Assembly: GCA_016932855.1 (NCBI GenBank)
Contig: JAFGCB010000014.1
Coordinates: 6,496-70,495 of the forward strand
DNA: 64,000 nt
Direction of reading: 5' to 3'
Source of the DNA: Candidatus Omnitrophota bacterium
GTDB lineage: Bacteria > Omnitrophota > Gorgyraeia > Duberdicusellales > Duberdicusellaceae
A program made the translations under genes and the position numbers. The notes beneath the pieces are model-generated. The model did not search any database. It saw only the letters and a list, made by a program, of their open reading frames with translations, and was not told where the DNA came from. Below, piece by piece: positions 13,904 to 33,511 of the stretch. Positions within the stretch are counted from its first letter, which is position 1. Each line of letters opens with the position of its first letter.

Positions 13904-15814
13904 TTACTTCTCAGACCTGCTCTCGTCATCTCTGGTATAGTAGCCGTATTTTTTATAACGGTAGTAGTAAGGATAGGGCTCTATGGGCTCGGTCTGAGGC
14001 CGAGTATGATTAAGAACTATTCCGGAAATATTGGTATTTACTGAATCTAACTGTGCTTTGCAGCGCAGAAGAGCTTCCCGGGAAACTCTGCCAGTTTCAT
14101 AGCAGACAACGATAGAATCTACTAAATTAGCGATAAGAGAAGCGTCGGTTACCGGAAGGACCGGGGGCGAATCAAAAAATACCACATCAAATTCACTACG
14201 CAGCTGTTCAAGCAAGGAAGAAAACCTGCTCGAGGCTAAAAGTTCCGCCGGATTATGAGGTATAGTCCCGCAAGGAAGAACCCAGATATTCCTAAGCCCC
14301 GAGGGCTTTACCGCCTCATCGAATTCCATATCCCCCAATATAATGTCGGTAATGTTTCTTAAGGCGTCTTTTAAATTATCCAGACCCGACAGAACTTCAC
14401 TTAAGCCCGGCCGAGGCTCTATGCCGAAAGTCTTAGCCAAAGCAGGCCGGCGCATATCCGAAGAAACTAATAAGGTGCGCAGGCCCTCTTGTGCGGTAGC
14501 CAATCCTAAATTTGTCAAAATAGTAGTCTTTCCTTCCTGGGGAGAAGAGCTTGTAATAAGAATTACTTTTTTTGAAGGGCTTATCTTAAGATTAGTCCTT
14601 ATATTTCTGAAAGATTCCGATATAGGCGCAGTAGGCTTGTAATGAACTGCCAGACGGATATATTTCTCCTCCTCTTCGCTTTTGGGAGGAATAAAAAATC
14701 TTCTTTTTATCCTGTCTAAAATATTTCCTTTCGCCCTGGCTCCGGCCTCAATAGAAGGGACAACTCCCAATACCGACAATTTTGTGATATTTTCAACGTC
14801 TTCTATTGTACCTATAGAAGTATCAAGGGTCTCGGTAACAAAAGCTAAGACACTTCCCAAAATCAGGCCCATTATTCCGCCCAAAACCAAAGACAGCTTC
14901 CCCTGAGAGCCTATTGCAACCGGGGGCATGACCGCCGGATTGACCACTGAAACATCGGAAACTTCCTCAGCCTCGGTAATACGGGCCTGCTCCAGCTTTT
15001 CTTTAAGCATGGAATAAAGCTTTCTATTATCTTCCGTTTCCCTTTTTAGGCGGGCGTATTCCAGGGCCTCTTCAGAAAATCCTTTTATCTGATTCTTTAA
15101 ATCTACGACCTGCTCCTTAAGTTGTATCACTGTAGGGTGTTTTTCGGTATATTTCTGCAATAAGGCCGCGAGCTGAAATTCCAAATCTACAATCTTTTCT
15201 TGAATAGGTTCGGCAATGCTTATATTATCTATTTTATCATCGTATTCCTTAAGCCTGTTCTCGGTATCACTTAGTCGCACTTTAAGGGAATTGAGCTGCT
15301 CTTCGACAAATTCACGCACGCTGCGGGCCTGCTTATTCTTGCTAAGAAGGTTCTCCTCAACATATACCCGGGCGACAGCATTTGCTAAATCAACTGCTTC
15401 CTGAGGCTTTTTGGATGTAGCCATAATCTTTATTATATTTGTCCTTCCGATGAGCTCGGTTTCAACCTGCGAGCTTATTCTTGTTACCGCTTCATTAACC
15501 GCATCCAAAGGAGAGTTTTCTTCAATAAAACCAAGATGCAAGGCTACTTTCTTGATAACCGGATAGCCTTTAATGATCTTGGCCTGAGACTCCATAATAT
15601 CGCCGGGATTATAGGAAATCCATTCGGTAAGCAGCCCGGCGATTGTCTTTCTTTCTTCATATTTTACGGTAGTTGTAGACTGATAAAGGGTTATTTGACG
15701 GGAGGAATGAAAGCCGAAGAGTAGGACCGATAAGATAAAAGTAACAATAACGATAAACTTGCGTTTCCGGAAAATCCTTATATAATCGCGCAAATTTAGC
15801 TCGTATTGTACCAT
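13904..15814 (-). CDS. wzc: Polysaccharide co-polymerase / BY-kinase (Wzc-like tyrosine autokinase)
   Basis: N-terminal Wzz domain with TM helix. Walker A SSSPQEGKTT, Walker B VVFFDSPPV. C-terminal tyrosine cluster PYPYYYRYKKYGYYT. Confidence 0.8.
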   Translation of the reverse strand: MVQYELNLRDYIRIFRKRKFIVIVTFILSVLLFGFHSSRQITLYQSTTTVKYEERKTIAGLLTEWISYNPGDIMESQAKIIKGYPVIKKVALHLGFIEENSPLDAVNEAVTRISSQVETELIGRTNIIKIMATSKKPQEAVDLANAVARVYVEENLLSKNKQARSVREFVEEQLNSLKVRLSDTENRLKEYDDKIDNISIAEPIQEKIVDLEFQLAALLQKYTEKHPTVIQLKEQVVDLKNQIKGFSEEALEYARLKRETEDNRKLYSMLKEKLEQARITEAEEVSDVSVVNPAVMPPVAIGSQGKLSLVLGGIMGLILGSVLAFVTETLDTSIGTIEDVENITKLSVLGVVPSIEAGARAKGNILDRIKRRFFIPPKSEEEEKYIRLAVHYKPTAPISESFRNIRTNLKISPSKKVILITSSSPQEGKTTILTNLGLATAQEGLRTLLVSSDMRRPALAKTFGIEPRPGLSEVLSGLDNLKDALRNITDIILGDMEFDEAVKPSGLRNIWVLPCGTIPHNPAELLASSRFSSLLEQLRSEFDVVFFDSPPVLPVTDASLIANLVDSIVVCYETGRVSREALLRCKAQLDSVNTNISGIVLNHTRPQTEPIEPYPYYYRYKKYGYYTRDDESRSEK

Positions 15815-15933
15815 AATATTCTAGAAAAATTCTATCAGATTTACCCACCCCAATCAAGAAGATTAAGCGCTATTTGGCTTTCCTAATTACCCTTAAGCTT
15901 GACGCCTAAATTCTTATCTGATACCCTATCCTC
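15815..15933. promoter_or_regulatory. Divergent promoter region between wzc (-) and the ABC transporter (+); candidate -35 TTGACG
   Basis: Only strand switch in the first 17 kb. TTGACG-17nt-TACCCT lies upstream of the ATG at 15934. Confidence 0.3.
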
Positions 15934-16722
15934 ATGAATACAACAATAATAGAAACAAAAGAGATAACTAAACTCTTTTGGTCTCCTCTTTCTCTATCGA
16001 AAATATCAAGGTTAGATCTTAAAAGAACAAAGCCGGTCAAAGCCCTAGATCAAATATCTTTTAAATGCGACAAAGGCTCAACCTTAGTTGTTTTAGGGCC
16101 GAACGGTGCAGGAAAAACCACGCTACTTAAGATAATCTCTACTCTTGTGCTTGCCGACAAAGGCGAGGTTAAGATAGCCGGGTATAAGGTTGGTAAGGAT
16201 GATGAGAAAATAAAGTCGAAAATAGGCTTAGCTAGCGGGGAAGAGCGAAGTTTCTATTGGCGCCTTACCGGAAGACAGAATTTAGAGTTTTTTGCAAGCC
16301 TCTACGGCATGGATAAAAACGAAATTAAATCCCGGCTTGAGATATTATTTAAATTATTTAAGATTGACTACCAGGAAAAACGCTTTGATACCTACTCCAC
16401 TGGTATGAAAAGGCGATTTTCCCTTATAAGGGCCCTTATTCATGATCCGGAAATCTTACTTTTGGACGAACCCACAAAAAGCCTGGATTATAACTGCCGG
16501 CAGGAACTAACCAAGCTTATAAAAGAACTGACAATGAAGGGCAAAACCGTAATCTTGGCCACACATGATATACAAGAAGCCGAGAATTTATCTAGTTTAT
16601 TTATGATTCTTAACAAAGGAAGGCTCTGCGGATTCGGCTCTAAAGAAGAATTAAGTAAAAAGATAGGATTAGGCGCAACGAATCTGGCTAAAGTCTATTT
16701 AACCCTTACCGAGAATGTCTAA
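15934..16722 (+). CDS. ABC transporter ATP-binding protein (ABC-2 type; Wzt/TagH-like, no C-terminal CBM)
   Basis: Walker A LGPNGAGKTT, signature YSTGMKRR, Walker B LLLDEPT. Confidence 0.85.
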   Translation: MNTTIIETKEITKLFWSPLSLSKISRLDLKRTKPVKALDQISFKCDKGSTLVVLGPNGAGKTTLLKIISTLVLADKGEVKIAGYKVGKDDEKIKSKIGLASGEERSFYWRLTGRQNLEFFASLYGMDKNEIKSRLEILFKLFKIDYQEKRFDTYSTGMKRRFSLIRALIHDPEILLLDEPTKSLDYNCRQELTKLIKELTMKGKTVILATHDIQEAENLSSLFMILNKGRLCGFGSKEELSKKIGLGATNLAKVYLTLTENV

Positions 16723-17518
16723 AATAATTTCTCTACTAAAGAAAGATTTTTTAATTGAAACAAGTTACAAATTAGCCTTTTTATTCAATATCTTCGGCGT
16801 CATTAGCAGCCTGCTTATTTATTTCTTTATTGACAAACTTTTCGGCCAAAGAATAAGCCCGCACTTGGAAGAATTCGGAATAAATTATTTTTCTTATGTG
16901 CTTTTAAGCATGGCTTTCTTCAGTTATATCGGCGTAGGCATCGGCTCTTTTTCCTCCCGGATTAGAGCCGAACAAATACAGGGGACGCTGGAATCACTTC
17001 TGGTCACTCCCACCAAAATATCAATAATCCTCTTAAGTATGGGTCTCTGGAACCTCATCTTCGCCACAATCGACGTTTTTATATATATTTCTTTAGGGGT
17101 AATATTATTTAACATAAACTTTACTAATGTAAACCTTATTTCAACGCTCGCAGTATTAATCTTGACTATTATATCCTTTAGCAGCCTAGGCATACTTTCC
17201 GCCAGTTTTATAATGATTTTTAAACGGGGAAATCCTGTAGCCTGGATTATAAATACCCTAGAGGGCCTTTTAGGCGGTGTATATTTTCCGGTTAAGGTTA
17301 TGCCGGCTTTCCTGCAGTTTCTGGCTAGATTCCTACCGATTACCTATGCCATACGGGCAATGCAACTGGCTGTATACAAAGGACATACTGTCTTTGAGCT
17401 TAAAAATGAACTTCTTTTTCTTTTCTTGTTCTCCTGCCTGCTTCTACCTCTAAGCTTTACCTCTTTTAGCTACGCTCTTAAGAAAGCTCGCCTCCAAGGA
17501 AGCCTCCTGCAATACTAG
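16715..17518 (+). CDS. ABC-2 type transporter permease (Wzm-like)
   Basis: 267 aa, 6 TM. Overlaps the ATPase gene by 8 nt. ABC-2 permease topology. Confidence 0.7.
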   Translation: MSKIISLLKKDFLIETSYKLAFLFNIFGVISSLLIYFFIDKLFGQRISPHLEEFGINYFSYVLLSMAFFSYIGVGIGSFSSRIRAEQIQGTLESLLVTPTKISIILLSMGLWNLIFATIDVFIYISLGVILFNINFTNVNLISTLAVLILTIISFSSLGILSASFIMIFKRGNPVAWIINTLEGLLGGVYFPVKVMPAFLQFLARFLPITYAIRAMQLAVYKGHTVFELKNELLFLFLFSCLLLPLSFTSFSYALKKARLQGSLLQY

Positions 17519-17551
17519 CTTTACAGAAATGATTCAAACGGTTTTGTAACG

Positions 17552-18694
17552 TTAGGGGGTGAGGAGATTTTTTAAGCGGTGCAGGTAGTGGGTAGGGCGG
17601 ATTCTTGAAGGAGGCAAACCAAGGTTGTGGGCCAAAATAAGGGATGAAGGTAGAAAGCTCCTTTTAACAAAACGCAGTTTAGGAGAAAATCCTTTTTGTA
17701 GAAAAAGAAAAGCTAGCCAGCACATCCTGTAAGAACGCAGCCCTCTCTTGGCCAAATAGGAATAAATAAATTTCTGAAAGCCCGGCTTTAGCATTCCGGT
17801 ATATTTGGAATTAAGACTTTTCAAACCAAGTAATTCTTCCGTAAGAGCGAGGCTAAAATAGACAATCCCAGATATGCCCCACTCTCGGGAAAAATAATCA
17901 ATCCTTTGCCAATCCAGGTTTTCCGCGTAAGAAGATAAAACCATGGCAATATCCGACAATCTCATTAAGTTATCGAAAGAATGGATAAAAGCATGCAGAC
18001 ACAAATAAATTAAAAGATGCTCGGGACATAAAGCAAGAGCATCAACTCCGCCTATTTTAGTAGATTGTACTTTGCTCCAAACACTAAACATATCTATACG
18101 ACTGACTAAATCCTCCAAAGGCCAAGTGGTATTTACAAGGTGCCAGTGAAGATGTAAACAGTATTTAAAGGGCCTTTCTTTTTTGTACATAAGCGTGTTA
18201 AGAGGTAAGATGCGGGAATTTTTAAGAAAATCAAAGTAAGAGTCGGGGGTTATGTAGCCTAAAGAATTTAAAAGAAGGTTAGCCTCTTTAAGATTATCCT
18301 TGGCAATAAGTAAGTCTATATCGCTCATCGGACGTAAGGCTATATTCTTGTAAACATGTTCTGCCAGAAAAACCCCTTTAATAGCAATTGTTTTTATGTT
18401 TTTTTCGGAAAATTTAGCTATTATCTTTTCTGCCTCTTCGAATACAAGAGTATTACTCAAAGAATTAGCATAATACTTCCTCTTAAATTCCTCCCTAACA
18501 CTTAAAGGAACAAGACCGTTTAAATTCTTCAAACCCCGGTAAATAAGAGGATAAACTTTCTCCCTATAAGACTTATTAAGGATATATTGCCAGTCCACAC
18601 TGGAACCGGATAAGATCTGTTCAACCTGCTTTAAATAAGCGGCTCTGGCATTTAAGCCCAGCAAACAAGTTAATAATTCATCTTCTCTGCGCAT
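17552..18694 (-). CDS. Nucleotidyltransferase family protein (PF14907-like)
   Basis: Conserved RPMSDIDLLI (hG[GS]x..DxD-type NTase motif), about 380 aa. This family is commonly clustered with PqqD and HprK-like kinases. Confidence 0.45.
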   Translation of the reverse strand: MRREDELLTCLLGLNARAAYLKQVEQILSGSSVDWQYILNKSYREKVYPLIYRGLKNLNGLVPLSVREEFKRKYYANSLSNTLVFEEAEKIIAKFSEKNIKTIAIKGVFLAEHVYKNIALRPMSDIDLLIAKDNLKEANLLLNSLGYITPDSYFDFLKNSRILPLNTLMYKKERPFKYCLHLHWHLVNTTWPLEDLVSRIDMFSVWSKVQSTKIGGVDALALCPEHLLIYLCLHAFIHSFDNLMRLSDIAMVLSSYAENLDWQRIDYFSREWGISGIVYFSLALTEELLGLKSLNSKYTGMLKPGFQKFIYSYLAKRGLRSYRMCWLAFLFLQKGFSPKLRFVKRSFLPSSLILAHNLGLPPSRIRPTHYLHRLKNLLTP

Positions 18695-18699
18695 ACCTT

Positions 18700-19590
18700 T
18701 TATAGGACTTTACTCATGATAATTCGCTCTTTTTTAGTCTTTCTATCGCCTCTTCTTAACTCCCGGTCAATCGCAGGAACAGATACTTGATTAAACCCGA
18801 GCTTGCTGTATAAATTAACTGCCGGCTTATTATCCTTAAATACAAAGAGCCTCACTTGAGTAGCCCCTTCTTCTTTTAAAAACCTTAAGGCCGTATACGT
18901 AAGCTTGTAAGCAATGCCTAAACGCCGGTAAAACCAATGCACCTGCGTAGAATAAATCCACCATCCCCTATAAGCCTCATTATCGGTGAAATTATTAAGG
19001 TTTAAACCGGCAATAACCTTATCCTCTCTCTTGGCCAGGATACGTTTATCCAAACCATCTAAAGATTCAATCTCATAGTTTACTTTTACCCTAATAAGCG
19101 TTCTTACTATATAACGATAAACTTTAAAACCCTGCACCCAACGTAGCAACATACCAGCTATTTTACGCATAGCTTCTACAGCAAAATTAATCCTGGCGTA
19201 GAATAAAGCTATGGCCTTAAACAAGGGGCTATCGGGAAATATTCTCCTGTCCCCTCTTTGGATAAACTTAACCTTACCTAAAAGATCACCTGAAGCGACT
19301 TCTTCAGGCTCTATATTAGAATCCCCCCTGGCTATTAAAATAAGCTTTCCTTCGCGAAGACGCCTCTTTATAAACCTGTGGGCGGCCAGGCGTTTATCCG
19401 GAGTCTTATAAAATATCACCTCGCCCAAACGTATTTTATCGGCCGCGGCCCTTTCAACAGTAAGGATATCCCCGTCCAAGATAGACGGACACATACTTTT
19501 CCCCCTGGCCTTAAAGCGAAGAAGGCCTGCCTTATTAATAATATCCCGGCTTAACTTAAGAAATTCTATTTTGTCCAGCTTCACGGGCAA
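18700..19590 (-). CDS. Fusion protein: S24/S26 (LexA/signal-peptidase-like) serine peptidase domain + GNAT acetyltransferase domain
   Basis: N-terminal RGKSMCPSILDGDILTV (Ser of the Ser/Lys dyad) ... HRFIKRR ... GDLLGKV. C-terminal GATQVRLFVFKDNKPAVNLYSKLGFNQV (GNAT motif A/B). Confidence 0.45.
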   Translation of the reverse strand: MPVKLDKIEFLKLSRDIINKAGLLRFKARGKSMCPSILDGDILTVERAAADKIRLGEVIFYKTPDKRLAAHRFIKRRLREGKLILIARGDSNIEPEEVASGDLLGKVKFIQRGDRRIFPDSPLFKAIALFYARINFAVEAMRKIAGMLLRWVQGFKVYRYIVRTLIRVKVNYEIESLDGLDKRILAKREDKVIAGLNLNNFTDNEAYRGWWIYSTQVHWFYRRLGIAYKLTYTALRFLKEEGATQVRLFVFKDNKPAVNLYSKLGFNQVSVPAIDRELRRGDRKTKKERIIMSKVL

Positions 19591-20432
19591 CTATCTATAA
19601 AATCTAAAGAGCTTTGATCGGGAAGAAAACCGAAATCATGGCAGGAAACAGCGCCGGCTAAGCAGCCACAAAAATCAAGAGTAAAATCCGTTCCTTGCTT
19701 ATCCCAAAAAGGAGGAAAAGAGCAGACAAAAAGTCGCGAAACAGCTTCAATCTCTTTTAAGGCTTTAAGGCTATTTTCAGCGGCGTGTCTTAAGAAAAAT
19801 ATTTTCTCTAAAGGAACCTTACCGGAAGAACAAGCCTTTACATCTCCATACCAGGGCGTTCCGTACATCCAGAATCCCTGCTTGTCTTTACGGACAATAA
19901 TCCTATCGTCATTTAAGATATCCACCCCTTCTTTATCCTTCCATAACTTAGCGATGGTACTTTTGCCGGCTCCAGAGCTACCAACAAACAAAAAACCCTT
20001 ATTTTTATAACTGACCCCGCAGGAATGAAGAATTATACCCTTTCCCTTGGAAAGCAGATTTATCATAAGTATTTCCCCTAAAGGATATTCCAAAGGGAAA
20101 TTATAGCCGTCATTACTGTCCCGGTCATCCAGGTAAATACTGCCGGAAGTAAAGACCTTATCAAAAACAGCCGTAGCCGAAGTAGTCCTTAATATCCGCA
20201 AATCACCCTGCTTTGATATGCTCCATGTCCCGGAGACATCAAAAAAAGCCTCCTCTTGAATCTGATTATCATAAAGCCTTTCAATAATCTTAAGATTTAT
20301 ATCAGCTTTTTCTTTAGTTACGAACCGACGATAGGAATTATTATACAAACGGCAGGAATTAATACTTGCCGGATTAAGAGATATTACTATATCTCCCAAA
20401 GAAAATCTTAATTCATTTCCTGCCTTAGCCAT
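19581..20432 (-). CDS. HPr kinase-related P-loop kinase (HprK C-terminal domain-like)
   Basis: Walker A FLFVGSSGAGKSTIAKLW in an HprK-like context. 283 aa. Overlaps the downstream gene by 10 nt. Confidence 0.5.
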   Translation of the reverse strand: MAKAGNELRFSLGDIVISLNPASINSCRLYNNSYRRFVTKEKADINLKIIERLYDNQIQEEAFFDVSGTWSISKQGDLRILRTTSATAVFDKVFTSGSIYLDDRDSNDGYNFPLEYPLGEILMINLLSKGKGIILHSCGVSYKNKGFLFVGSSGAGKSTIAKLWKDKEGVDILNDDRIIVRKDKQGFWMYGTPWYGDVKACSSGKVPLEKIFFLRHAAENSLKALKEIEAVSRLFVCSFPPFWDKQGTDFTLDFCGCLAGAVSCHDFGFLPDQSSLDFIDSCP

Positions 20433-20488
20433 ATTATCTACCCAAAAAGAAATAGTTTCATTCCGAAGGTAAGAAATTTATACGGCTG

Positions 20489-20653
20489 TTAACTTCCGCT
20501 GTCCTTAGAGCACTTACCAGGATTAACAGGCGGACAAGACTCGCTTTTTCCGTTTGAGCCGTCGCTTCTTTTGCATCCTGTAAGCAAGGCTTCCTGGGGA
20601 ACTAAGTCAACTTGGCTTAGTGCCGGTTTTTGATAGGTTTTTTTTGTCATCAT
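20489..20653 (-). CDS. Unannotated 54-aa peptide; candidate RiPP precursor: MMTKKTYQKPALSQVDLVPQEALLTGCKRSDGSNGKSESCPPVNPGKCSKDSGS
   Basis: Hand-translated. Start ATGATG preceded by AAGGAGG 10 nt upstream. Lies between the rSAM/SPASM and kinase genes on the same strand. Core rich in Cys/Ser/Gly/Pro. Missing from the ORF track because it is under 60 aa. Confidence 0.5.
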   Translation of the reverse strand: MMTKKTYQKPALSQVDLVPQEALLTGCKRSDGSNGKSESCPPVNPGKCSKDSGS

Positions 20654-20697
20654 ACTCTGTATACCTCCTTAAAAATAATCCGCTTTTAAGCGTTCTT

Positions 20698-21777
20698 TTA
20701 ATAAACTGCCGGCTTAATCAAGCCTAAAGCCTCAGCCCTTAGATGAGCGACCTTGCAAAGATACTCGACCGGCTTTTGGGGATCGGAATTTTCAAGCTGG
20801 CCCCAGCCCGGACACTGTCCGCAAAGAGAGATTAGTTCACAGCTGTTACATCTGTAATCACTGCTGCACTTCCGGGATAAGACTTCAGGGACTCTATCAT
20901 ACCAGACTTCCTTAAAGCTGTTTTTTAGAAGACTAAAACTCTGGGCCCGGGACATCTCGCAGACAGTCAAATACCCGTAAGGGTCGATATTAAAGGAATT
21001 TACTCCCGCTCCGCAGATATAGAGATTATCCGAGCCTGTGCCACCCCAGAACTGCTCACAGAACTGTCTTAACTCCTGGGCCCTCTTGTAAGAAGCAAAA
21101 TCAAGCTCAACTACCTGACTGGGCAGAACTCTAAACTTACAGGGCTCTTTACAGCCGTCAAGTCTGGGGTTAATTCCTGTATCTAATCTAAAACTTAAGC
21201 CTAAATCTTGAGCAAACTTCTCCATGCTCCGGACTTCATCAAAGTTTAAATTCATAACCATAGTCTTTAAGCTAAGGGGTAATTTACGCTCTCTTAAAAT
21301 ATCAATTCCTTTAAGGCACTCTTTGAAAGAGCCGGGCACTCCGGTAATCTTCTCGTGGGTTTCCTTAGATGCACCGTAGATACTTACTTCTATGCGGAAA
21401 GGCGGATACTCTCTTAAATAATCGGCGATATAATCGGTAACCAGCGTAGCGTTAGTAAACAAAGTAATAATCATGCCTTTATTTTTTGCATAGCCATAGA
21501 TATCCAAAAAGTCTTTCCTTAAAAGCGGCTCTCCGCCGGTTATAAGAAGCCAAAGACAGCCGGAAGCGGCAATCTCGTCCAGAAGACGGCTAATCTCCTT
21601 AAAGCTTAGCTCCTTTTCTTTAATATCATGAAGGCAGTAGCAATGCACACAACCCATGTTGCAGCGGAAAGTAAGCTCTATGGTCCCGCAAATAGGAGTA
21701 CGGTCCTTCTTTACTTTGGAATGAATCTTTTGGCTAAACTTACTGTAAGGTATTTTTACCAGGGGACGGCAATCCAT
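20698..21777 (-). CDS. Radical SAM / SPASM-domain peptide-modifying enzyme
   Basis: CNMGCVHC (Cx3Cx2C). Cys-rich C-terminus CGAGVNS...CNSCELISLCGQCPGW is typical of SPASM auxiliary clusters. Confidence 0.8.
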   Translation of the reverse strand: MDCRPLVKIPYSKFSQKIHSKVKKDRTPICGTIELTFRCNMGCVHCYCLHDIKEKELSFKEISRLLDEIAASGCLWLLITGGEPLLRKDFLDIYGYAKNKGMIITLFTNATLVTDYIADYLREYPPFRIEVSIYGASKETHEKITGVPGSFKECLKGIDILRERKLPLSLKTMVMNLNFDEVRSMEKFAQDLGLSFRLDTGINPRLDGCKEPCKFRVLPSQVVELDFASYKRAQELRQFCEQFWGGTGSDNLYICGAGVNSFNIDPYGYLTVCEMSRAQSFSLLKNSFKEVWYDRVPEVLSRKCSSDYRCNSCELISLCGQCPGWGQLENSDPQKPVEYLCKVAHLRAEALGLIKPAVY

Positions 21778-21779
21778 CT

Positions 21780-22073
21780 TTAAACTTCCTCTATCCCTTT
21801 TATCCGTAATAAATTATCTAAGAATTCCTTAAGGTCCTGCTCTGCTTCTTTAACAGATACGTCAAATTCCTCAGCAAGCTTGTCCCTGATGCGGGTTAAG
21901 CTTATTTCCGGGTCAATTAATTCCCAAATCCTGGAAGCGACTTCATTTAAGGTATAAATACTCTGCAGATCACCTACGTTATTACTAATAGGCACCAAGA
22001 TAGACTCCTCAGCGATTTTTCTAAAGACAATATCGGGATTTTTCTTATAGCGTTTATCCAAGACTTGCATATT
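21780..22073 (-). CDS. PqqD-family peptide chaperone (RiPP recognition element)
   Basis: IYTLNEVASRIWELIDPEISLTRIRDKLAEEFDVSVKEAEQDLKEFLDNLL matches the PqqD fold consensus. The ORF-track start at 22124 overlaps the upstream gene; the internal Met at 22073 is more likely. Confidence 0.7.
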   Translation of the reverse strand, partial: NMQVLDKRYKKNPDIVFRKIAEESILVPISNNVGDLQSIYTLNEVASRIWELIDPEISLTRIRDKLAEEFDVSVKEAEQDLKEFLDNLLRIKGIEEV

Positions 22074-22077
22074 TTTA

Positions 22078-22950
22078 TTACCAGACTTTAGCCCCGCGGG
22101 AAAAGCCTTGGGCTTTGGTAGCATTATCTAAGATAGGTCCGAATAAGGTGCTTAGAAAATAATTTACATCAGCGATAAACTTCTTAGGGACAAATACAAT
22201 ATTTCCGGATGCCAAAGTAATGTTCTGCTGACTTGAAGGCTTATGGATAGCTTTATTTAAATCAAACCTTTCGGCCTTGGGATTATCAAAGCCGTCTTTT
22301 ACCACGATAACGCTTGAAGCAACCGAATGACTGGTAAAGCCTCCGGCTAAAGCTATAACTTCCAAAAGATTAGTTGCCCCGGAAATAGAATATACACCGG
22401 GATAAACCACTTCACCCAAGACGATTACTTTACCTAAGCCTATCTTGCGCAAAGAGATAGAAACATCAGGAAAACGAATGTATTCCTTTAACTTTGCGGT
22501 TATCTTTTCATCAAGCTGACCCACGCTAAGACCTGAAGCCTGGACTTCGTCTACTAAGGGTAAGGAAATCTTTCCGTCAGGCCTTACAATTGTCTCCTGA
22601 TCAAGGTCAGGGTTCTCCCAAACCGATATAAAAAGGGTATCTCCCTGACCGATAATATAGGCTCCGGATTGAGCATCGGCAGCAGTAACTGGCTGAGCTT
22701 CCTCTAATCCTAAAGGCTCTTCAACCCTGGCGACACGGGAAAGCCTTTCTTTATCTTTAAGAAATTGAAGGGATCTTTTGAACTCTCTTTCCGCTTCCTT
22801 ATAAAGACCGTGCTCGTAATAAATCGTCCCCACCCGGTAATGCTGGCGGGCCTTCTGCTCAAGGTCCTGGGAATAAAGAAGGCTACCGGCTGCTAAAAAT
22901 AAAATAAAACTTACGCTTAAAAAAGATAATCTCATGCCATTTGCAGACAT
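22078..22950 (-). CDS. wza: Polysaccharide export protein, Wza/OPX family (Poly_export + SLBB)
   Basis: Signal peptide. YIIGQGDTLFISVWENPDL..VRPDGKISLPLVDEVQASGLSVGQLDEKI is the Poly_export signature. SLBB-like C-terminus. Confidence 0.7.
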   Translation of the reverse strand: MSANGMRLSFLSVSFILFLAAGSLLYSQDLEQKARQHYRVGTIYYEHGLYKEAEREFKRSLQFLKDKERLSRVARVEEPLGLEEAQPVTAADAQSGAYIIGQGDTLFISVWENPDLDQETIVRPDGKISLPLVDEVQASGLSVGQLDEKITAKLKEYIRFPDVSISLRKIGLGKVIVLGEVVYPGVYSISGATNLLEVIALAGGFTSHSVASSVIVVKDGFDNPKAERFDLNKAIHKPSSQQNITLASGNIVFVPKKFIADVNYFLSTLFGPILDNATKAQGFSRGAKVW

Positions 22951-22991
22951 AGCGGATAAAAACCTTTTTCTTTTTAATCCTGCTTTACCGC

Positions 22992-24410
22992 CTATTCAAG
23001 TTCCTGCCCGGAAGCCTGGCCGCTCTCGATAGACTGAAGAATCACCTCGACTTTGCTGCGCAGCTCATCAGCGTCCTCTTCCTTAGATAAGTCATCCTGC
23101 AGGCTTCCTCCCAAATCCATCTGACCTATCTTTTCTTTGGTAAGCGGCTCTGCCTCTAAAGTTACGTCTTCGCCCAAAAGATTGGATACCTCCCGCAGGC
23201 GTTCCTGAAGGGCGGTATTCAAACTCGTAGTTTGAGAAAGTCTTTCCAATATCTTTCTCTGATTCTCTTCGCTGCTTTTAAAAGCCTCTTCTAATTTTTC
23301 GGATTTCTCCTTTAGATAAGAAATCTGGTCTTTAATTCCGGTGATCTGCTTCTCCTTTTCGTCCAGCTCCAAGTCTTTTCGATAAAGGACATCGGAAAGC
23401 TCTTTAAGCTGGTCCCGTAATCTGTTATAAAGAGAAGTTACTGTTCTTAATCTTTCGTTCTGCAGCCTTACTTTCTCCTGCAATGCTATGGATTCGGTGC
23501 TACCGGCTATCTGGTATTCTTTCAGTTTTTCCTCAAGATCATAGACGGCTTTGCTCTTTTGGTCTAAATCAGAGTTTAGCTTAACTATCTGGTCCTGAAA
23601 ACTTTTATTGCGAAACTGAAGTTCCTCTATATCCCTTTTATATCCTTCGATCTCTACTATCAAATCGTCTTTGTTTTTATTATACGACGAGAGCTTGTCC
23701 TCAAAAGCAAGCTTCTCTTTGTCCTTTTCCTCCAATTGCCTGGTAAGCTCTTCTATGCGTCTCTGCAAAAATTGAGAGGGCTTTTCGCCGGCCAACTCCT
23801 TCTGGTATCTTTCTATGTTTTTCTTAAGAAAGTCTCTTTCTTTTATGCTTTGGGCATACCTATCTTTAAGCTCTCCCAACTCCCTGATAAGACTCTGGGT
23901 CTGTCTGTCTTTTTCTTTTATCTGCATCTTTAAACGGTTAAACTGTTCTTGCTCAAAAGCGATGTCCTGTCTGCTTTCTAAATTTAATATTTTTACCTTA
24001 GCCTCCTGCAACTGGCTTGAAAAAGTATCCAATTCTTTGATATTGGCCTGCATTTGGTTTTTCAAGGCAAAATTTTCACCTCGCAAGACATCGGATTGAG
24101 CCTTAATACTGGTCAACTCAGAGTTTAAGCTGTTAATCATATCCTGAGCGGCTGAAAGCGCCCTTTTTAAACGCTGGGGATAACTCAATTCATCTACCTT
24201 ATCGCCTAAATCATCAAGTTCGGCTTGTTTGTCTACTAAAGAAGCTGTAAGCTGCTCAATCTTTTCCTCATAAGAGCTAACTTTCTCAAGAAGTGCGGCT
24301 TTTTCTCTTTGAAGAGAGCCTAAACTAAATCCGGAAAAAATAATAAAATAACCTGCTAACAAGGCTATGCTTGCGGCTAAAACCAAAAGGATAATATTTT
24401 TTTTAAACAT
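22992..24410 (-). CDS. Membrane-anchored coiled-coil protein (possible PCP/chain-length or scaffold protein)
   Basis: N-terminal TM helix followed by about 440 aa of heptad-rich coiled coil. Confidence 0.4.
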   Translation of the reverse strand: MFKKNIILLVLAASIALLAGYFIIFSGFSLGSLQREKAALLEKVSSYEEKIEQLTASLVDKQAELDDLGDKVDELSYPQRLKRALSAAQDMINSLNSELTSIKAQSDVLRGENFALKNQMQANIKELDTFSSQLQEAKVKILNLESRQDIAFEQEQFNRLKMQIKEKDRQTQSLIRELGELKDRYAQSIKERDFLKKNIERYQKELAGEKPSQFLQRRIEELTRQLEEKDKEKLAFEDKLSSYNKNKDDLIVEIEGYKRDIEELQFRNKSFQDQIVKLNSDLDQKSKAVYDLEEKLKEYQIAGSTESIALQEKVRLQNERLRTVTSLYNRLRDQLKELSDVLYRKDLELDEKEKQITGIKDQISYLKEKSEKLEEAFKSSEENQRKILERLSQTTSLNTALQERLREVSNLLGEDVTLEAEPLTKEKIGQMDLGGSLQDDLSKEEDADELRSKVEVILQSIESGQASGQELE

Positions 24411-24420
24411 ATTCTTAAGC

Positions 24421-25476
24421 TTATGCGATATAAAACCCCGGGCTTCTGCTTAAATCTATTTCTTTGGGTTTTTCCAGGCGTCTTCCCTGAGAATCAATCA
24501 GAACTTTGACTAAAGGCGAGGTCGGCAAAGCGGGATTACGCCTTACGACAAAAGCTAACTCCTGGGTGTTTAAGGTAACCGGGGTTCCTCTGGGATAGAG
24601 GCCGACCTTCTCCAACAAAGCCTTTATAACTTTTTTACTGAAACTTTCTTTATTATTCAGAATTATTTTTATACACTCTTTGGCTGTATGTGCCGGCCGA
24701 TAAGGCCGTTTATGAGTAAGAGCCTCGTATACGTCAGCTAAGCCGACGATTCTGGCAAAATCATTTATCTGCTCGGCCTTAAGGCCACGGGGGTAACCTA
24801 GGCCGTTAAAACGTTCATGCTCCTGCTCCAGGGCAGCCAGTATAGAAACATCAATATCGAGCCTTATCTTTTTCAAGGCTTCCGAACCCTGTAGAGGGTG
24901 ATCTTTTATCTTTCGAAAATCAGATATGCTTAAACGCTGAGGCAGGCTGGCAATAGGTAAATAACGGCGCATACCTATGTCGTGAAGAAAGCCCGCCGCA
25001 CCAAGCTTTATTAGATCATCCTTTGATAAACTAAACCAATGTCCGATTTCTAAAGAAAGAATACAGACATTTACCAAATTCAGAGAAAGATAGTGCCCTG
25101 AAAAAGAATCATCGGAGAATATAAAATCAAAAAGCTCCTGGGTATCCTTTTCGATAAAATCCGAAAGCTCCCGTACGCAAGAAAAAATGTCACTGATGTT
25201 TATCTTCGGTGCCTCGCCTTTAAATACCTCCTCGGCTAGATTTAAAGCCCGGGAATATAAACTCTTAGCCTTGACGGAGCCTTTTTCATCAGAAAGGCTC
25301 TTTGGAATATTTAAATCTTTTTTAATCTTTGAAGAATCTAAGCTTTTTGCGCTCGATGTATCGCTCTGCCGGAAAGAAGGGAAATTAAGTTTATGAAGAG
25401 AAATTCTATCATCAACAGGTTCTTTGGAAGATTTTCTTTCATCTTCTCCTTTAGGAATCTTAGAAAAATCAACCAT
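24421..25476 (-). CDS. HD-GYP domain protein (c-di-GMP phosphodiesterase family; possibly a degenerate metal site)
   Basis: FLHDIGM ... EQEHERFNGLGYPRGLKAEQINDFARIVGLADVYEALTHKRPYR. The HHExxDGxGYP consensus is present with one His replaced. Confidence 0.6.
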   Translation of the reverse strand: MVDFSKIPKGEDERKSSKEPVDDRISLHKLNFPSFRQSDTSSAKSLDSSKIKKDLNIPKSLSDEKGSVKAKSLYSRALNLAEEVFKGEAPKINISDIFSCVRELSDFIEKDTQELFDFIFSDDSFSGHYLSLNLVNVCILSLEIGHWFSLSKDDLIKLGAAGFLHDIGMRRYLPIASLPQRLSISDFRKIKDHPLQGSEALKKIRLDIDVSILAALEQEHERFNGLGYPRGLKAEQINDFARIVGLADVYEALTHKRPYRPAHTAKECIKIILNNKESFSKKVIKALLEKVGLYPRGTPVTLNTQELAFVVRRNPALPTSPLVKVLIDSQGRRLEKPKEIDLSRSPGFYIA

Positions 25477-26209
25477 CTCCTTTTTCGCCTACTTGCTTGC
25501 AAAAACACTCCTCTAAATCTTTTTCAGCTTGAATTATTATTTCCTTATCGATTATGTCCAAATGCTTAATAAAACCGGTAAGAAGCGCCAGGTCGCAAAT
25601 ATTATTGATTATCCGGGGTATGCCGCCGGATAGCTCGTAAATCTGGCTATAGGCAGGCTCGGTAAATATGGCCCGATCAAGACCTGCGACATTCAAACGA
25701 TGAGCGATATATCTGGCTGTCTGTATGCTGTCAAAGGGATGAAGGTAATAACGGATAGAAAACCTCTGCTTAAGCTGAGGCGAACGGGATATATTCTCCA
25801 AAATAGAAGATTGACCCAAAAGAAGCAAGGTAAACAAGAAAGAATCATCGCGCTGAATATTCAAAAGAAGTCTTAATTCCTCGAGAAAATCCTCTTGGGC
25901 TATGCTCTGGGCTTCATCAACAACAAGCGCAGTATAAAAACCGCTGTCAAAATTATCTTGAAGACTCCTACTTATGGCGTGAAGTAAATCTACTTTATCC
26001 ATGGATGAGAATCCATCAGAGCCGGACAACTGATATTGTATCTCTTTTAATAAATCAACCGGGCTTAAGCGGGGATTGGATATGACCACGAATCTGAACT
26101 GATTCTGGCCGCACTCCCTTATAAGAGCTTTGCTTAAAAGGGTCTTTCCCATGCCGTATTCTCCGGTCAAGAAAAAAGCGGGCTTATGCTCCCAAACCGC
26201 ATAACTCAT
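25469..26209 (-). CDS. ExeA/GspA/MshM-like AAA ATPase
   Basis: P-loop GEYGMGKT, VVDEAQ box, C-terminal GGIPRIINNICDLAL. Resembles the secretin-associated ATPases of T2SS/MSHA and PEP-CTERM loci. Confidence 0.6.
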   Translation of the reverse strand: MSYAVWEHKPAFFLTGEYGMGKTLLSKALIRECGQNQFRFVVISNPRLSPVDLLKEIQYQLSGSDGFSSMDKVDLLHAISRSLQDNFDSGFYTALVVDEAQSIAQEDFLEELRLLLNIQRDDSFLFTLLLLGQSSILENISRSPQLKQRFSIRYYLHPFDSIQTARYIAHRLNVAGLDRAIFTEPAYSQIYELSGGIPRIINNICDLALLTGFIKHLDIIDKEIIIQAEKDLEECFCKQVGEKGDG

Positions 26210-26325
26210 ACGCGATAAAGCTTCCCTGTGCTCGGGAGAATAATAAAAAAAAGTAGGATCAACCGTATTTTCGAAAGGCTTTTTTATAAGCTTCCAATAC
26301 TCGTTATATATAGTTACCTCCTGTT

Positions 26326-26856
26326 TTATTGTTGCGGCTCTTGGGCCAAGATCTTCCTCTTGGAAAGACTCTTAAAAGAATAATCTTCGGAACCCTCGGG
26401 CTTGGGAAAGCTTATTACGCCGCCCATGCTACTTAAATCCGGGGATATTTCGCCTCGAAAGAAGGTAACCTGGTTTTCGCTTGACTGCATAGTCTCCCAA
26501 ACCACTTGTCCGTCATCCTTAAGAGATAAGGTGTAATTGGAAGGGCTAAACCCCTCTGCGACAAGCTTCTTTGAAGAAACCTGATAACCGCTAAAGACAA
26601 GGACATCTTTACTGGTATTTCCTTTCTGGGGACCGGAAGAAACCCTCATTTCAACATCCCACTCGGTATCGTTTAAAGCTTCCTGCTTCTGAGAAATCAC
26701 TTCTCTTTTTCTCTGCATCTCCAATTCCGCCTGAGATAAAGCTTTTTCTTTCCCGGCATCTTTGGCCTTGGAAGGGACTCTTCCGGAAGAGCCGTTACAG
26801 CCATATCCTACAAATACACAGATAACAAACACCGCGATAGAAATAAACCGCGTCAT
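26326..26856 (-). CDS. Putative lipoprotein, unknown function
   Basis: Signal peptide MTRFISIAVFVICVFVGYGC. The ORF-track TTG start at 26871 is less likely than the ATG at 26856 with GGGGGAAGG upstream. Confidence 0.4.
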   Translation of the reverse strand: MTRFISIAVFVICVFVGYGCNGSSGRVPSKAKDAGKEKALSQAELEMQRKREVISQKQEALNDTEWDVEMRVSSGPQKGNTSKDVLVFSGYQVSSKKLVAEGFSPSNYTLSLKDDGQVVWETMQSSENQVTFFRGEISPDLSSMGGVISFPKPEGSEDYSFKSLSKRKILAQEPQQ

Positions 26857-27040
26857 CCTTCCCCCTTTCAATGACCCCGCGCCTTTGTTTTATCCACGAT
26901 GAATGGCTCAAAGGTGCGGGGGGAATTGACCTCGAACCCCGGCTTCGCCGGGATAAGAGATCTTATTTAGATTGATCCGTTTTCAACAAGTCCTGCTTCC
27001 AGCGGGACGAAATATCTTATCTAGATTAATCAACCGCAGT

Positions 27041-27985
27041 TCACTTAATCGGTGTTTCAGCTTCCCAGGCCTGCCAAGTAAGAATGTATTTTTTTACCCA
27101 ATCCACATCCTTATCCTCTTTGCTGGCAAGCCTTAAATATTTACGGAAATAATCAATCGCCTTATTTCTATCTACCAGATATTCAGCGTAAATATAGCCT
27201 AAATTAAAATAGGCGTAGACATCTTCGGGATTAAGCCTAAGAGCCTTTTCAAACTCGGCAATCGCTCGTTTATATTGACCCTCACCGGTGTAAAAAACGC
27301 CCAGATTATAATGCATAAGGGCTGTCTCTTTGATGAGGACTTTGTTTTCCCGGGCGATCTCGGCAAATTCCTTAGGAAGCTTGCTCAACTTCTTCTCTAA
27401 TTCTTTATTAGCGCTAAGGGCTTGGTTATACTTTTTCTTAAGCTCTGAATGCTGCCTTCGGTAAAGCTTGCTCTCGGCTTTTACCGATATCTTATCGCCC
27501 TCTAACTTTTCAATTTCTTTCTCCAGACCGCTGATTTTGCGCTCCAGAAGCAGGTTATCCTTTTTAGCCTGGTCAAGCTCCCTCTTGATATCATCTACTA
27601 TTTTATATTCAACTTCCATTTTTTCAATATAATTCTTAAGTACCTCCATCTGGCTTTTAAGCTCTGAATTTTGGGCCGCAAGTTCGTCTATATACTCCTT
27701 TAAATCGGTTATTTCGGCATTCAGAGCAATCTTGTCTTGCTCAAGCTGATTATTCTTGCCCTGGACAATCCTGGCTTCATCCTGCATTTGGCGTATCTCA
27801 GTTTTATATTGAAGAAGGTTTTTGCTCTGGGCTAAAATATTGTCCCGGTCTTTAAGAAGACGCTCGTACTCCTTCTTTAACTTCTCCAGCTCAACTCTTA
27901 AGGTTGCTGCGTCTTGAGCATAGACAAGGCTAGACCCCAAAATACAGGCCACTATGAAAACTGATAAATATATGCTGTTTCTCAT
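27041..27985 (-). CDS. Signal/TM + coiled-coil + C-terminal TPR protein (secretin partner; MshN-like?)
   Basis: N-terminal hydrophobic segment, about 180 aa coiled coil, TPR repeats LGVFYTGEGQYKRAIAEFEKALRLNPEDVYAYFNLGYIY. Paralog of 29889-31019. Confidence 0.55.
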   Translation of the reverse strand: MRNSIYLSVFIVACILGSSLVYAQDAATLRVELEKLKKEYERLLKDRDNILAQSKNLLQYKTEIRQMQDEARIVQGKNNQLEQDKIALNAEITDLKEYIDELAAQNSELKSQMEVLKNYIEKMEVEYKIVDDIKRELDQAKKDNLLLERKISGLEKEIEKLEGDKISVKAESKLYRRQHSELKKKYNQALSANKELEKKLSKLPKEFAEIARENKVLIKETALMHYNLGVFYTGEGQYKRAIAEFEKALRLNPEDVYAYFNLGYIYAEYLVDRNKAIDYFRKYLRLASKEDKDVDWVKKYILTWQAWEAETPIK

Positions 27986-27991
27986 AAGTAA

Positions 27992-29779: not shown

Positions 29780-29888
29780 TCAACCCCGTACCTTTGAATT
29801 ATTCATCGCAGATACAGCAAAGGTGCGGGGTAAATCCGGACATAGACTTATGTTCGTCGCTTTGCTCCTCCATAAGTCTCGCCCTCAT

Positions 29889-31019: not shown

Positions 31020-31022
31020 AGC

Positions 31023-32828: not shown

Positions 32829-33511
32829 TTCAGCTCTTTTTCCTGCCCCTGGTATCGTAATATCACTTTATCTTTAAAAATACCGGCCACTTCAACCTCG
32901 CCTATGAAATCGCCGCGTTTTAAAAAAAAGGTTTTCTGGGCTTTAGTGTCCTCTATCATCGCATCAGGGTCATCCGACCAGGAAATACCCACCAGCTTAA
33001 GATTGGCGGTCATCTTCGCTACCTCTTTTACAGGATCTTGTTTGGCCGCCTCTTCGCCTTCTTTTTTAGCTTCATCCTTTATCTCTTTGGAAGTCATCTT
33101 GAAAATATCTCTTTTTCGTGCTTTCTCAAGATAGAAAGAAGGATTTTTTAAAAAAGCAATATCCTTAACATTAAAGCCCTTAATGTCTCTATCAATTTTA
33201 AAGGCAGAATCAACCTGCTCTTTGATCCCCAGCATCGAGGTTGCCAAGTCAAAAGACATGAAAGAAAAAATCCCTAAAGCAGCGATGATTAAAAGCTTAT
33301 TTATATCAGTGATATCCAGGCTTACTTGCCCGGAGAAAACCTTAAACAAACTTACCTTAAAGAAGGAAAACCTGCCTCTAAGCCCTCCCAAAGAAAAAAG
33401 GCTTAAGCCTTTGCGCAGAGAACCTTTACCGGCAAAGGAAGAACCTGCCTTTTTTTCTTCGATCAATTTAAGTAATTCCCTCTCGGGAGTGGGAGACTGA
33501 TTCTCAGCCAT
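32825..33511 (-). CDS. Inner-membrane secretin-associated protein, GspC/PilP-like (tentative)
   Basis: Single TM. C-terminal beta-rich FFLKRGDFIGEVEVAGIFKDKVILRYQGQEKEL resembles the PilP/GspC homology region. 4-nt overlap with the secretin gene. Confidence 0.35.
   Translation of the reverse strand: MAENQSPTPERELLKLIEEKKAGSSFAGKGSLRKGLSLFSLGGLRGRFSFFKVSLFKVFSGQVSLDITDINKLLIIAALGIFSFMSFDLATSMLGIKEQVDSAFKIDRDIKGFNVKDIAFLKNPSFYLEKARKRDIFKMTSKEIKDEAKKEGEEAAKQDPVKEVAKMTANLKLVGISWSDDPDAMIEDTKAQKTFFLKRGDFIGEVEVAGIFKDKVILRYQGQEKELK

Follow-up and report, generated by a model that had tools for sequence, protein, structure and literature searches.

A six-gene cassette on the minus strand of a 64,000-nucleotide stretch from a Candidatus Omnitrophica metagenome-assembled genome (MAG; GenBank assembly GCA_016932855.1, contig JAFGCB010000014.1, positions 6,496 to 70,495; the whole stretch is called the window, and positions are counted from its first letter) is read here as a maturation cassette for a peptide made by the ribosome and modified after translation (RiPP). 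More precisely, we read it as a relative, equipped with a radical S-adenosylmethionine (rSAM) enzyme, of the linear polyphosphorylated peptide (LPP) systems of Bacillota (Popov et al., Nat Commun 2026, PMC13381572) and of the systems that tailor phosphorylated lasso peptides, with a probability of roughly three in four. The genes encode a PqqD-family protein, which is a discrete RiPP recognition element (RRE), an rSAM enzyme with a SPASM-type tail, a precursor peptide, an HprK-like kinase, an S24-type peptidase fused to a GNAT acetyltransferase, and a nucleotidyltransferase (NTase). Two of the observations behind the reading stand out: the gene order is conserved in 80 related loci, and a precursor family accompanies it in 71 of them. 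The RiPP-type cassette that had been proposed from the letters and open reading frames (ORFs) of this DNA, here called the sequence-only reading, is borne out by both.

All six ORFs were confirmed at the positions given in Table 1. As the sequence-only reading had it, the genes are co-directional and tightly packed, with intergenic gaps of about -10 to +56 nt, and its PqqD, rSAM, S24 plus GNAT and PF14907 assignments agree with the Pfam matches. Relatives were gathered through the rSAM protein by scanning a single genome for each GTDB species, which gave 366 tblastn-confirmed stretches; 80 loci taken from these are the basis of all counts out of 80 below. The order PqqD, rSAM/SPASM, short peptide, HprK-like kinase, S24/signal-peptidase-I-like peptidase and PF14907 NTase recurs across the 80 loci in more than 15 phyla, with PqqD present in 73, rSAM in 78, the kinase in 63, the S24 peptidase in about 59 and the NTase in 34, and with the precursor recognised in 57 by phmmer and in 71 by a hidden Markov model (HMM). 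The hosts include Omnitrophota, WOR-3, Desulfobacterota, Aminicenantes/Acidobacteriota, Nitrospirota and Nitrospinota, as well as Chloroflexota, Planctomycetia, Cloacimonadota, Patescibacteria and one Thermoplasmata MAG. Because the identical order recurs in 80 loci of other genomes, the grouping is far beyond chance, and a chance or artefactual grouping is ruled out by this conservation. A scan of positions 15700–23200 for promoters and terminators does not allow operon boundaries to be drawn: its counts, 17 and 7, are no higher than those from shuffled sequence, 14.5 and 9.6. The whole window has no Rfam match. In two of the relatives (L050, 51–2542; L070, 9–3153) a second, divergent cassette lies directly upstream of the main one, with paralogous rSAM, kinase, S24 and PqqD genes in another order; the whole system is duplicated there in tandem.

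The precursor consists of a predicted leader, MMTKKTYQKPALSQVDLVPQEA, followed by a predicted core, LLTGCKRSDGSNGKSESCPPVNPGKCSKDSGS, and a strong ribosome-binding site (RBS), AAGGAGG, lies about 8 nt upstream of its ORF. It had been called an unannotated 54-codon ORF; the ORF is real, but GenBank does carry it, as hypothetical protein JW734_01415. A word-based search with the 54-residue peptide retrieved only itself, and homologues were found only by way of the rSAM loci, with phmmer and then with the HMM. The HMM matches come straight after the rSAM gene. Nine loci have none: in about five the contig ends with that gene or shortly beyond it, and four form a sub-branch that is also without PqqD. 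A homologous Cys-containing peptide at this position in 71/80 loci bears out the proposal that the short ORF is the RiPP precursor. The converse finding named with that proposal, that homologues of the cassette enzymes never adjoin a short Cys-containing ORF, is decisively excluded, because the peptide is conserved 3′ of the rSAM gene across the related loci.

The peptide family is sharply defined in its leader and loosely in its core. The leader follows the consensus [RK]-K-x-Y-x-K-P-x-[ILV]-x-x-[VI]-x-L-x-x-E-E-A-V-L-x-x-C-K, in which, among 75 peptides, Tyr(-16) and Pro(-13) occur in all 75, Leu(-6) in 74, Glu(-2) in 70, Ala(-1) in 66, Cys(+5) in 71 and Lys(+6) in 69. The spacing from the Tyr to the first Cys is exactly 20 residues in 67 of 69 peptides, and 65 of 76 have exactly three Cys. 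The core is 27–37 residues long, rich in Gly, Ser and Thr, and variable in sequence apart from the Cys residues and the C-terminus; the family alignment shows no conserved aromatic residue in it. In 61 of the 62 peptides from kinase-bearing loci the last residue is Ser or Thr, usually as Gly-Ser. Cleavage is predicted after the conserved E-E-A (Ala22), since 16 residues from the Tyr lands at this point, matching the LPP register from Y-16 to T-1 (E-T); the resulting core would have 32 residues and start with LLTGCK. Without modification, the whole precursor has a monoisotopic mass of 5681.76 Da, and the predicted core has a mass of 3194.48 Da. The window contains one copy of the precursor. In locus L043 (11059–12121), three to four tandem precursor-like ORFs lie 3′ of the rSAM gene, two of which stop after the leader and may be decayed duplicates. 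Beside the rSAM cassette of a Dehalococcoidaceae MAG (L068, 14756–18082), a second set of NTase, kinase and PqqD genes has no adjoining rSAM match and is followed by a different ORF with a YxKP leader, MAKEPYVKPEVKSETLEPEALLNSGSPLGDNGSPGDDICDC; this set may be an LPP-like module outside Bacillota.

The start of the PqqD protein is probably M19 (22070), in line with its homologues, which gives it 96 residues. Its best NCBIfam match is lasso_PqqD_Bac at 38.1 bits (cutoff 80), and it also stays below the cutoffs of lasso_PqqD_Strm (18.6 bits against 70) and PQQ_PqqD (31.5 against 46); membership in the lasso PqqD families was rejected, the score being below both NCBIfam cutoffs. A profile of the family matches, in the PDB, the lasso RRE TbiB1 (7e-13) and two PqqD-family chains, 9x90_B (6e-8) and 9x8z_B (a 'PqqD family protein', 8.8e-8). 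We take these two chains to come from the LPP study, and 9x8z_B to be LppB, so that the family shares a discrete RRE with the LPP systems, although its profile matches TbiB1 more strongly than this presumed LppB chain. Two residues of the family, an invariant Asp (D79) and an Asn that is mostly conserved (N42), align with D88 and N51 of 9x8z_B, which would be D70 and N33 of LppB, assuming that the chain is LppB with an 18-residue tag. In LppB, D70 and N33 hold Tyr-16 and Pro-13 of the leader (PMC13381572). Judged from this alignment, the leader-contacting residues of LppB appear to be conserved in the PqqD family.

Relatives of the rSAM protein number in the thousands, at 46–64% identity. Its C39xxxC43xxC46 motif and all seven SPASM cysteines (C255-x12-G268-x4-C273, C310-x2-C313-x5-C319-x2-C322, C341) are invariant in 28 homologues. 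The SPASM-type Cys-rich tail noted from the sequence is thereby upheld, though by motif, the Pfam SPASM model giving no match to the protein at E ≤ 0.1. The best full-length NCBIfam match is MftC, with 120.7 bits (cutoff 265). The protein falls below the cutoffs of all curated maturase models, including PapB (68 against 340), SkfB (64 against 300), StsB (82 against 625) and AlbA (59 against 850), and it does not reach that of PqqE (75.1 against 381); membership in any of the named sacti- or ranthipeptide maturase families was accordingly rejected. The closest PDB entry by sequence is SkfB (6.9e-17), and a fold search places SkfB on top, together with SuiB, BlsE, PqqE, CteB and the anaerobic sulfatase-maturating enzyme (anSME). 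The enzyme groups with the peptide-modifying SPASM enzymes, because SkfB and SuiB are nearest, with PqqE, CteB and anSME close behind. A grouping with non-peptide SPASM enzymes had been named as the result that would speak against peptide maturation; the nearest solved relatives are the peptide maturases SkfB and SuiB.

Intramolecular thioether bridges from the three conserved Cys residues are the most likely product of this enzyme. Three positioned Cys residues in a variable Gly/Ser/Thr-rich core are the classic sacti-/ranthipeptide signature, and SkfB, a thioether former, is the top match both by sequence and by fold. Could the same cassette, acting on the same substrate, instead carry out another chemistry? 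A C-C or C-N cross-link, an epimerisation, or an oxidation of Cys or of the C-terminus would leave the three Cys as disulfides, metal ligands or ligands of an auxiliary cluster of the enzyme. The MftC match points this way, MftC being a mycofactocin maturase that acts on the C-terminus of its peptide, as do the structural neighbours SuiB (a Lys-Trp cross-link), PqqE, the epimerase EpeE and anSME, and the Lys beside the first Cys is conserved in 69 of 75 peptides. Set against the Cys signature, the SkfB matches and the lack of a conserved aromatic residue in the core, these points leave a non-thioether chemistry as a real possibility that we nevertheless hold rather unlikely.

The same family scores bear on a further idea, that the peptide is a precursor of a small redox cofactor, similar to pyrroloquinoline quinone (PQQ) or mycofactocin, which serves some enzyme of the locus and is not secreted. 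A PqqD protein and an rSAM/SPASM enzyme form the core of the PQQ and mycofactocin pathways, and the cassette shares this core; MftC is the best full-length match, and the PqqD and PqqE models match as well. All of these scores are far below their cutoffs, the core varies in length and in sequence save for the Cys residues and the C-terminus, and no oxidoreductase of the cofactor type is a conserved partner. A peptide product, like those of the LPP and lasso systems, agrees with the presence of a kinase, an NTase, a leader peptidase and an exporter, and a cofactor role strikes us as highly improbable. Membership in the HPr-rel-A, GeoRSP, mycofactocin and PQQ systems was rejected, their models scoring below cutoff.

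Four loci (L072, L074, L075 and L077) carry an rSAM sub-branch of 46–49% identity that lacks PqqD and a recognised precursor and keeps the S24 peptidase and NTase where the contig reaches; in L072, L074 and L075 it adjoins a CPBP intramembrane protease and sugar-modifying genes. This sub-branch may use a different substrate. The window also encodes a second, unrelated rSAM protein of 432 residues, about 14 kb upstream of the cassette.

For the kinase, a single sequence gives weak evidence: the Pfam match has E=0.039, HprK_rel_B scores 37 bits against a cutoff of 200 (E=1.7e-9), and a single-sequence search of the PDB returned nothing useful. A profile of the family succeeded instead, with HPr kinase/phosphorylase in first place (E=0.0018). 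The AlphaFold2 (AF2) model (predicted local distance difference test, pLDDT, 90.7) led Foldseek to PEPCK and HprK/P, and together with the profile it sustains the HprK-related assignment. The aligned motifs are H136, G151xSxxGK157(S)T and D175-D176-R177, of which the P-loop and DD are invariant. The HPr-rel-A families (TIGR04352/TIGR04353), which had been suggested as a check, did not recover the proteins, HprK_rel_A scoring 14.1 bits against 200 and PqqD_rel_X 19.1 against 35. The family, including homologues P0122–P0241, carries a precomputed Pfam tag, PF27840, and its source annotations all read 'hypothetical protein'.

The target of the kinase is most likely the near-invariant C-terminal Ser/Thr of the precursor, to judge by lasso peptides. 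HPr-kinase homologues phosphorylate the C-terminal Ser of lasso precursors on its side chain, sometimes several times (PMC8498205, PMC6993621), and in pseudomycoidin the nucleoside triphosphate (NTP) transferase PsmN is required for the attachment of one or two hexoses to the phosphate (PMC6993621). The sequence-only reading was thus correct in naming such kinases and NTases as tailoring partners of lasso peptides (PMC8498205, PMC6993621). The DD motif needed for PsmK activity and the catalytic residues D134/D136 of PsmN (PMC6993621) have counterparts in the cassette, in the DD of the kinase and in the DxD of the NTase (D125-I-D127), which is predicted to bind metal. Searching the PDB by sequence detects no solved relative of the NTase. 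It combines PF14907 with this DxD; LppN and PsmN appear in the papers as 'uncharacterized NTP transferase'.

The peptidase-GNAT fusion has an S24 domain of the endoplasmic reticulum (ER)/archaeal (SipW/SEC11) type at about residues 1–125 and an N-alpha-acetyltransferase-like GNAT domain at about 150–296. The S24 part scores 50.1 bits with sigpep_I_arch, just below the cutoff of 51.85. In the PDB this part matches SEC11A/C (residues 31–94), and the GNAT part, which has an acetyl-CoA motif, RRLGIA, at residue 222, matches Naa10/20/30, RimI and archaeal Nat. Residues G30, S32, M33, P35, H71, R72, G89 and D90 (GxSMxP, HR, GD) are conserved in 55–58 of 58 homologues. The peptidase has no N-terminal membrane anchor. 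After the peptidase domain, at about residues 123–141, comes a moderately hydrophobic helix with a Kyte-Doolittle score of 1.23 (nine of 59 homologues score ≥1.6); it could be what is left of a SipW-type membrane anchor, or a helix for membrane association. In the relatives the S24 domain stands alone in 39 cases, is fused to GNAT in 10, to NTase in six, and to both in one; the seven S24-fused NTases are those of L025 (3892–5973; with both GNAT and NTase), L001, L004, L031, L040, L042 and L064. They mirror the B2-protease-NTase fusions of lasso clusters, and the fusions of S24 with GNAT, NTase or both tie the three activities to one substrate. The role of leader protease that had been proposed for the S24 domain is backed by experiment in the LPP system, where deletion of LppS abolishes leader removal (PMC13381572).

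The nearest described counterpart is the LPP set, in which an RRE, an HprK-like kinase, a SipW-type leader peptidase and an NTP transferase are encoded in polysaccharide loci, and in which the kinase polyphosphorylates core Ser3 of precursors with the leader YxxPxVLxHQxIxFET|xxS (PMC13381572). In addition to the discrete RRE, the cassette shares with it an HprK-like kinase (by PDB profile and fold; the LppK sequence itself was not compared), an archaeal/SipW-type signal peptidase I as predicted leader peptidase, a YxxPx[ILV] leader motif in the same register (Tyr at -16) with an acidic residue at -2, and a dedicated ATP-binding cassette (ABC) exporter in capsule or exopolysaccharide (EPS) loci near a tyrosine autokinase; a Paenibacillus LPP cluster lies a few genes from such an autokinase, just as the cassette of the window lies near a Wzc-like one. 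The differences are equally clear. The cassette has an rSAM/SPASM gene between the RRE and precursor genes, whereas the LPP product is linear and the LPP core set includes no enzyme for cyclisation or cross-linking, and the cassette often has a GNAT fused to the peptidase. Its short core has three conserved Cys residues and a C-terminal Ser/Thr rather than a phosphorylated Ser3, and its peptides lack the HQ, the F(-3) and a conserved Ser at +3, the rest of HQxIxFET being unshared. Its exporter is of the ABC-2 (DrrAB-like) type, unlike the MsbA-like exporter of the LPPs, and it occurs in Omnitrophota, Desulfobacterota, Acidobacteriota, Nitrospirota, Chloroflexota and others, while LPPs have been called restricted to Bacillota (PMC13381572).

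Paeninodin and pseudomycoidin resemble the cassette in an HPr-kinase homologue that acts, in the cassette by prediction, on the C-terminal Ser, in an NTP transferase (a candidate role for the PF14907 NTase), a discrete PqqD-type RRE and a Y/WxxP leader, and differ in that the cassette has an rSAM/SPASM enzyme and a serine peptidase in place of the lasso cyclase and B2 cysteine protease. By Pfam, neither an Asn-synthetase-like lasso cyclase nor a transglutaminase-like B2 protease is found among the six genes and 20 neighbours, and both families are absent from the annotated recurrent neighbour clusters. With the sacti- and ranthipeptide systems (SkfB, AlbA, CteB, PapB) the cassette has in common an rSAM enzyme with a SPASM/twitch domain, an adjoining Cys-containing precursor and RRE-dependent recognition. 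The RRE is usually fused to the maturase in those systems, and in the cassette it is a separate protein; a kinase, NTase or signal-peptidase-I-like peptidase as a partner of such systems was not found in the literature. SynChlorMet (TIGR04248-04251), an uncharacterised system defined from genomes, has a PqqD homologue (ScmD), rSAM/SPASM enzymes (ScmE/ScmF) and ScmC, a weak match of the kinase (E=1.6e-5, below cutoff). Membership was rejected on scores of 24.4 against 125 for ScmC, 20.8 against 100 for ScmD, 87.1 against 400 for ScmE and 64.3 against 400 for ScmF; to our knowledge the SynChlorMet definition includes no peptidase and no NTase, and no paper on it was found.

The combination of genes had been thought undescribed. 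This holds in part: RRE, kinase, SipW-type peptidase and NTP transferase are known together as LPP, and the rSAM/SPASM enzyme, the GNAT and the Cys-containing core are apparently new. Neither 'Radical' nor 'SPASM' was found in the portions of the LPP paper and supplements examined (PMC13381572), and a literature search found no description of a RiPP cluster that joins an rSAM enzyme with an HprK-like kinase.

If the cassette is such an rSAM-bearing relative, homology suggests the following course. The PqqD RRE would bind the Y-x-K-P-x-[ILV] motif of the leader and present the precursor to the enzymes. The rSAM/SPASM enzyme would modify the core, most likely by turning the three Cys residues into intramolecular thioethers. 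The kinase would phosphorylate Ser/Thr, possibly several times and likeliest at the C-terminus, as in paeninodin and pseudomycoidin. The NTase, by comparison with PsmN, would add a group, probably a sugar, to the phosphate, and the polysaccharide locus could supply its substrate. The SipW/SEC11-type domain would remove the leader after E-E-A, as shown for LppS, the fused GNAT would then acetylate the new N-terminus, and the adjacent ABC-2 transporter would export the product.

Several points weigh against this picture. A product has been observed for no member of the family, and everything beyond gene content is argued by analogy. All 80 loci were found through the rSAM protein, which makes the co-occurrence figures conditional on its presence, and none of the six proteins reaches a family-specific NCBIfam cutoff. 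The cleavage site has a single basis, the register with the LPP leader. A fold search cannot separate thioether formation from other SPASM chemistries, given that SuiB, PqqE and anSME score similarly. The LPP kinase acts on core Ser3 and not on a C-terminal Ser, which makes the phosphosite uncertain here. LppN had no detectable activity in a heterologous host (PMC13381572), and the direct chemistry of PsmN is unproven (PMC6993621). Finally, the GNAT, NTase and ABC-2 pair are missing from many related loci and are hence accessory parts.

The cassette lies downstream of genes for an ExeA-like ATPase, an HD-domain protein, a coiled-coil protein and a Wza-like exporter, and upstream of an ABC-2 pair, a Wzc-like protein, a Wzy_C protein and glycosyltransferases. 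The stop of the Wza-like gene and the likely start of PqqD are only a few nt apart. The genes from 22078 to 26209 are conserved context, not cassette enzymes. The ABC-2 pair (15934–17518), convergent with the cassette and directly beyond its downstream end, probably exports the peptide and is a frequent accessory part. Of the 36 loci with enough downstream sequence, 13 have an ABC ATPase at most 3.5 kb beyond the cassette on that side. The position of the cassette among polysaccharide export genes had been called unusual. It is typical: at least 25 of the 46 related loci of 12 kb or more have Wza, Wzc, WecA, DegT, O-antigen-ligase or ExeA-like markers, WecA-like, DegT-like, PIG-L and Wzb families also recur beside the cassette, locus L024 shares synteny with the window across some 20 genes, and LPPs are found in the same setting. 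Gene neighbourhood does link the cassette to EPS. The product probably acts together with the capsule or EPS, because in many phyla the cassette regularly sits in polysaccharide export loci of the Wza/Wzc type.

One may argue, on the same gene neighbourhoods, that the cassette is a self-contained island for an antimicrobial or competition peptide that lands in polysaccharide loci by horizontal transfer and has no tie to EPS. The distributions of LPPs and paeninodins are very patchy and driven by transfer (PMC13381572), about 21 of the 46 long loci have no recognisable polysaccharide markers, and many loci have an ABC-2 exporter of their own. Yet the cassette recurs across distant phyla between ExeA-like, HD and Wza genes upstream and ABC-2 and Wzc genes downstream, the gap to Wza is minimal, and the LPPs of Bacillota independently show the same association, their expression rising together with an EPS gene (PMC13381572). 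We regard an autonomous island as unlikely. At the other extreme, the product might be a thioether-bridged peptide with a sugar on its C-terminal Ser-phosphate that is an integral partner of the Wza/Wzc pathway, for example a primer, an anchor or a cap joined to the polymer by a phosphodiester; a structure and role this specific would be a long shot.

Table 1. Positions and evidence for the cassette genes and for other features of the window
Feature	Position	Strand	Evidence and remarks
PqqD-family protein (discrete RRE)	21780-22124	-	PF05402, E=3.5e-14; in 73/80 loci
Radical SAM enzyme with C-terminal seven-Cys SPASM; candidate cross-linking maturase	20698-21777	-	PF04055, E=1.6e-24; in 78/80 loci
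Precursor peptide, 54 aa	20489-20653	-	RBS AAGGAGG; peptide HMM matches 71/80 loci
Predicted leader (residues 1-22)	20588-20653	-	
Predicted core (residues 23-54)	20492-20587	-	
HprK/PEPCK-fold P-loop kinase; candidate peptide Ser (poly)kinase	19581-20432	-	in 63/80 loci
S24 (SipW/SEC11-type) and GNAT fusion; candidate leader peptidase and N-acetylase	18700-19590	-	PF00717, E=2.8e-6; PF00583, E=2.6e-13
PF14907 nucleotidyltransferase; candidate phosphate-decorating enzyme (cf. PsmN/LppN)	17552-18694	-	E=1e-52, whole profile
ABC-2 permease	16715-17518	+	PF01061, DrrB-like; permease family in 16/80 loci
ABC-2 ATPase	15934-16722	+	PF00005, DrrA-like
Wzc-like chain-length determinant/tyrosine autokinase	13904-15814	-	TIGR01007, 161 bits against cutoff 108; GNVR, AAA_31; in 17/80 loci
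Wza-like exporter	22078-22950	-	NCBIfam/Pfam; homologues in 13/80 loci
Coiled-coil protein	22992-24410	-	upstream context
HD-domain protein	24421-25476	-	homologues in 21/80 loci
ExeA-like 'XrtA/PEP-CTERM-associated' ATPase	25469-26209	-	AAA_22; homologues in 18/80 loci
TPR/coiled-coil protein	27041-27985		
Secretin	27992-29779		
TPR/coiled-coil protein	29889-31019		
Secretin	31023-32828		
T2SS-C-like protein	32825-33511		
Second ExeA-like ATPase	34979-35836		AAA_22
Second, unrelated radical SAM protein	36518-37816		PF04055, E=3e-18

Two further observations concern the surroundings of the cassette. In eight relatives (L007, L011, L015, L022, L034, L041, L072 and L074) from several phyla, a recurrent block beside the cassette encodes a WecA-like protein, a DegT/PseC-like aminotransferase, a PIG-L deacetylase, a 227-residue protein and a CehA/McbA-like metallohydrolase; the block suggests an amino-sugar pathway associated with the peptide. 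In the window itself, the region upstream has two secretins, each followed by a tetratricopeptide repeat (TPR)/coiled-coil protein, two ExeA-like AAA_22 ATPases and a protein resembling component C of type II secretion systems (T2SS). This export region (25469–35836) looks duplicated.

If the reading of the cassette is right, a toolkit of RRE, HprK-type kinase, SipW-type peptidase and NTase that was published as restricted to Bacillota would span many mostly uncultured, largely anaerobic phyla. Its combination with an rSAM enzyme would make a hybrid of phospho-tailoring and radical cross-linking, a pairing of RiPP chemistries not found in the literature. The sharply defined precursor family, with its invariant YxKP leader, three Cys residues and terminal Ser/Thr, is a concrete target for natural-product chemists. 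The presence of the same cassette between the same capsule and EPS genes in distant phyla sharpens the question, left by the LPPs and paeninodins, of the role of phosphorylated RiPPs in polysaccharide coats or biofilms, and makes it easier to approach. And should the improbable case of a sugar-phosphate peptide joined to the polymer prove true, a 'peptide-tagged EPS' would be an ancient trait shared by the LPPs of Bacillota and many uncultured phyla.

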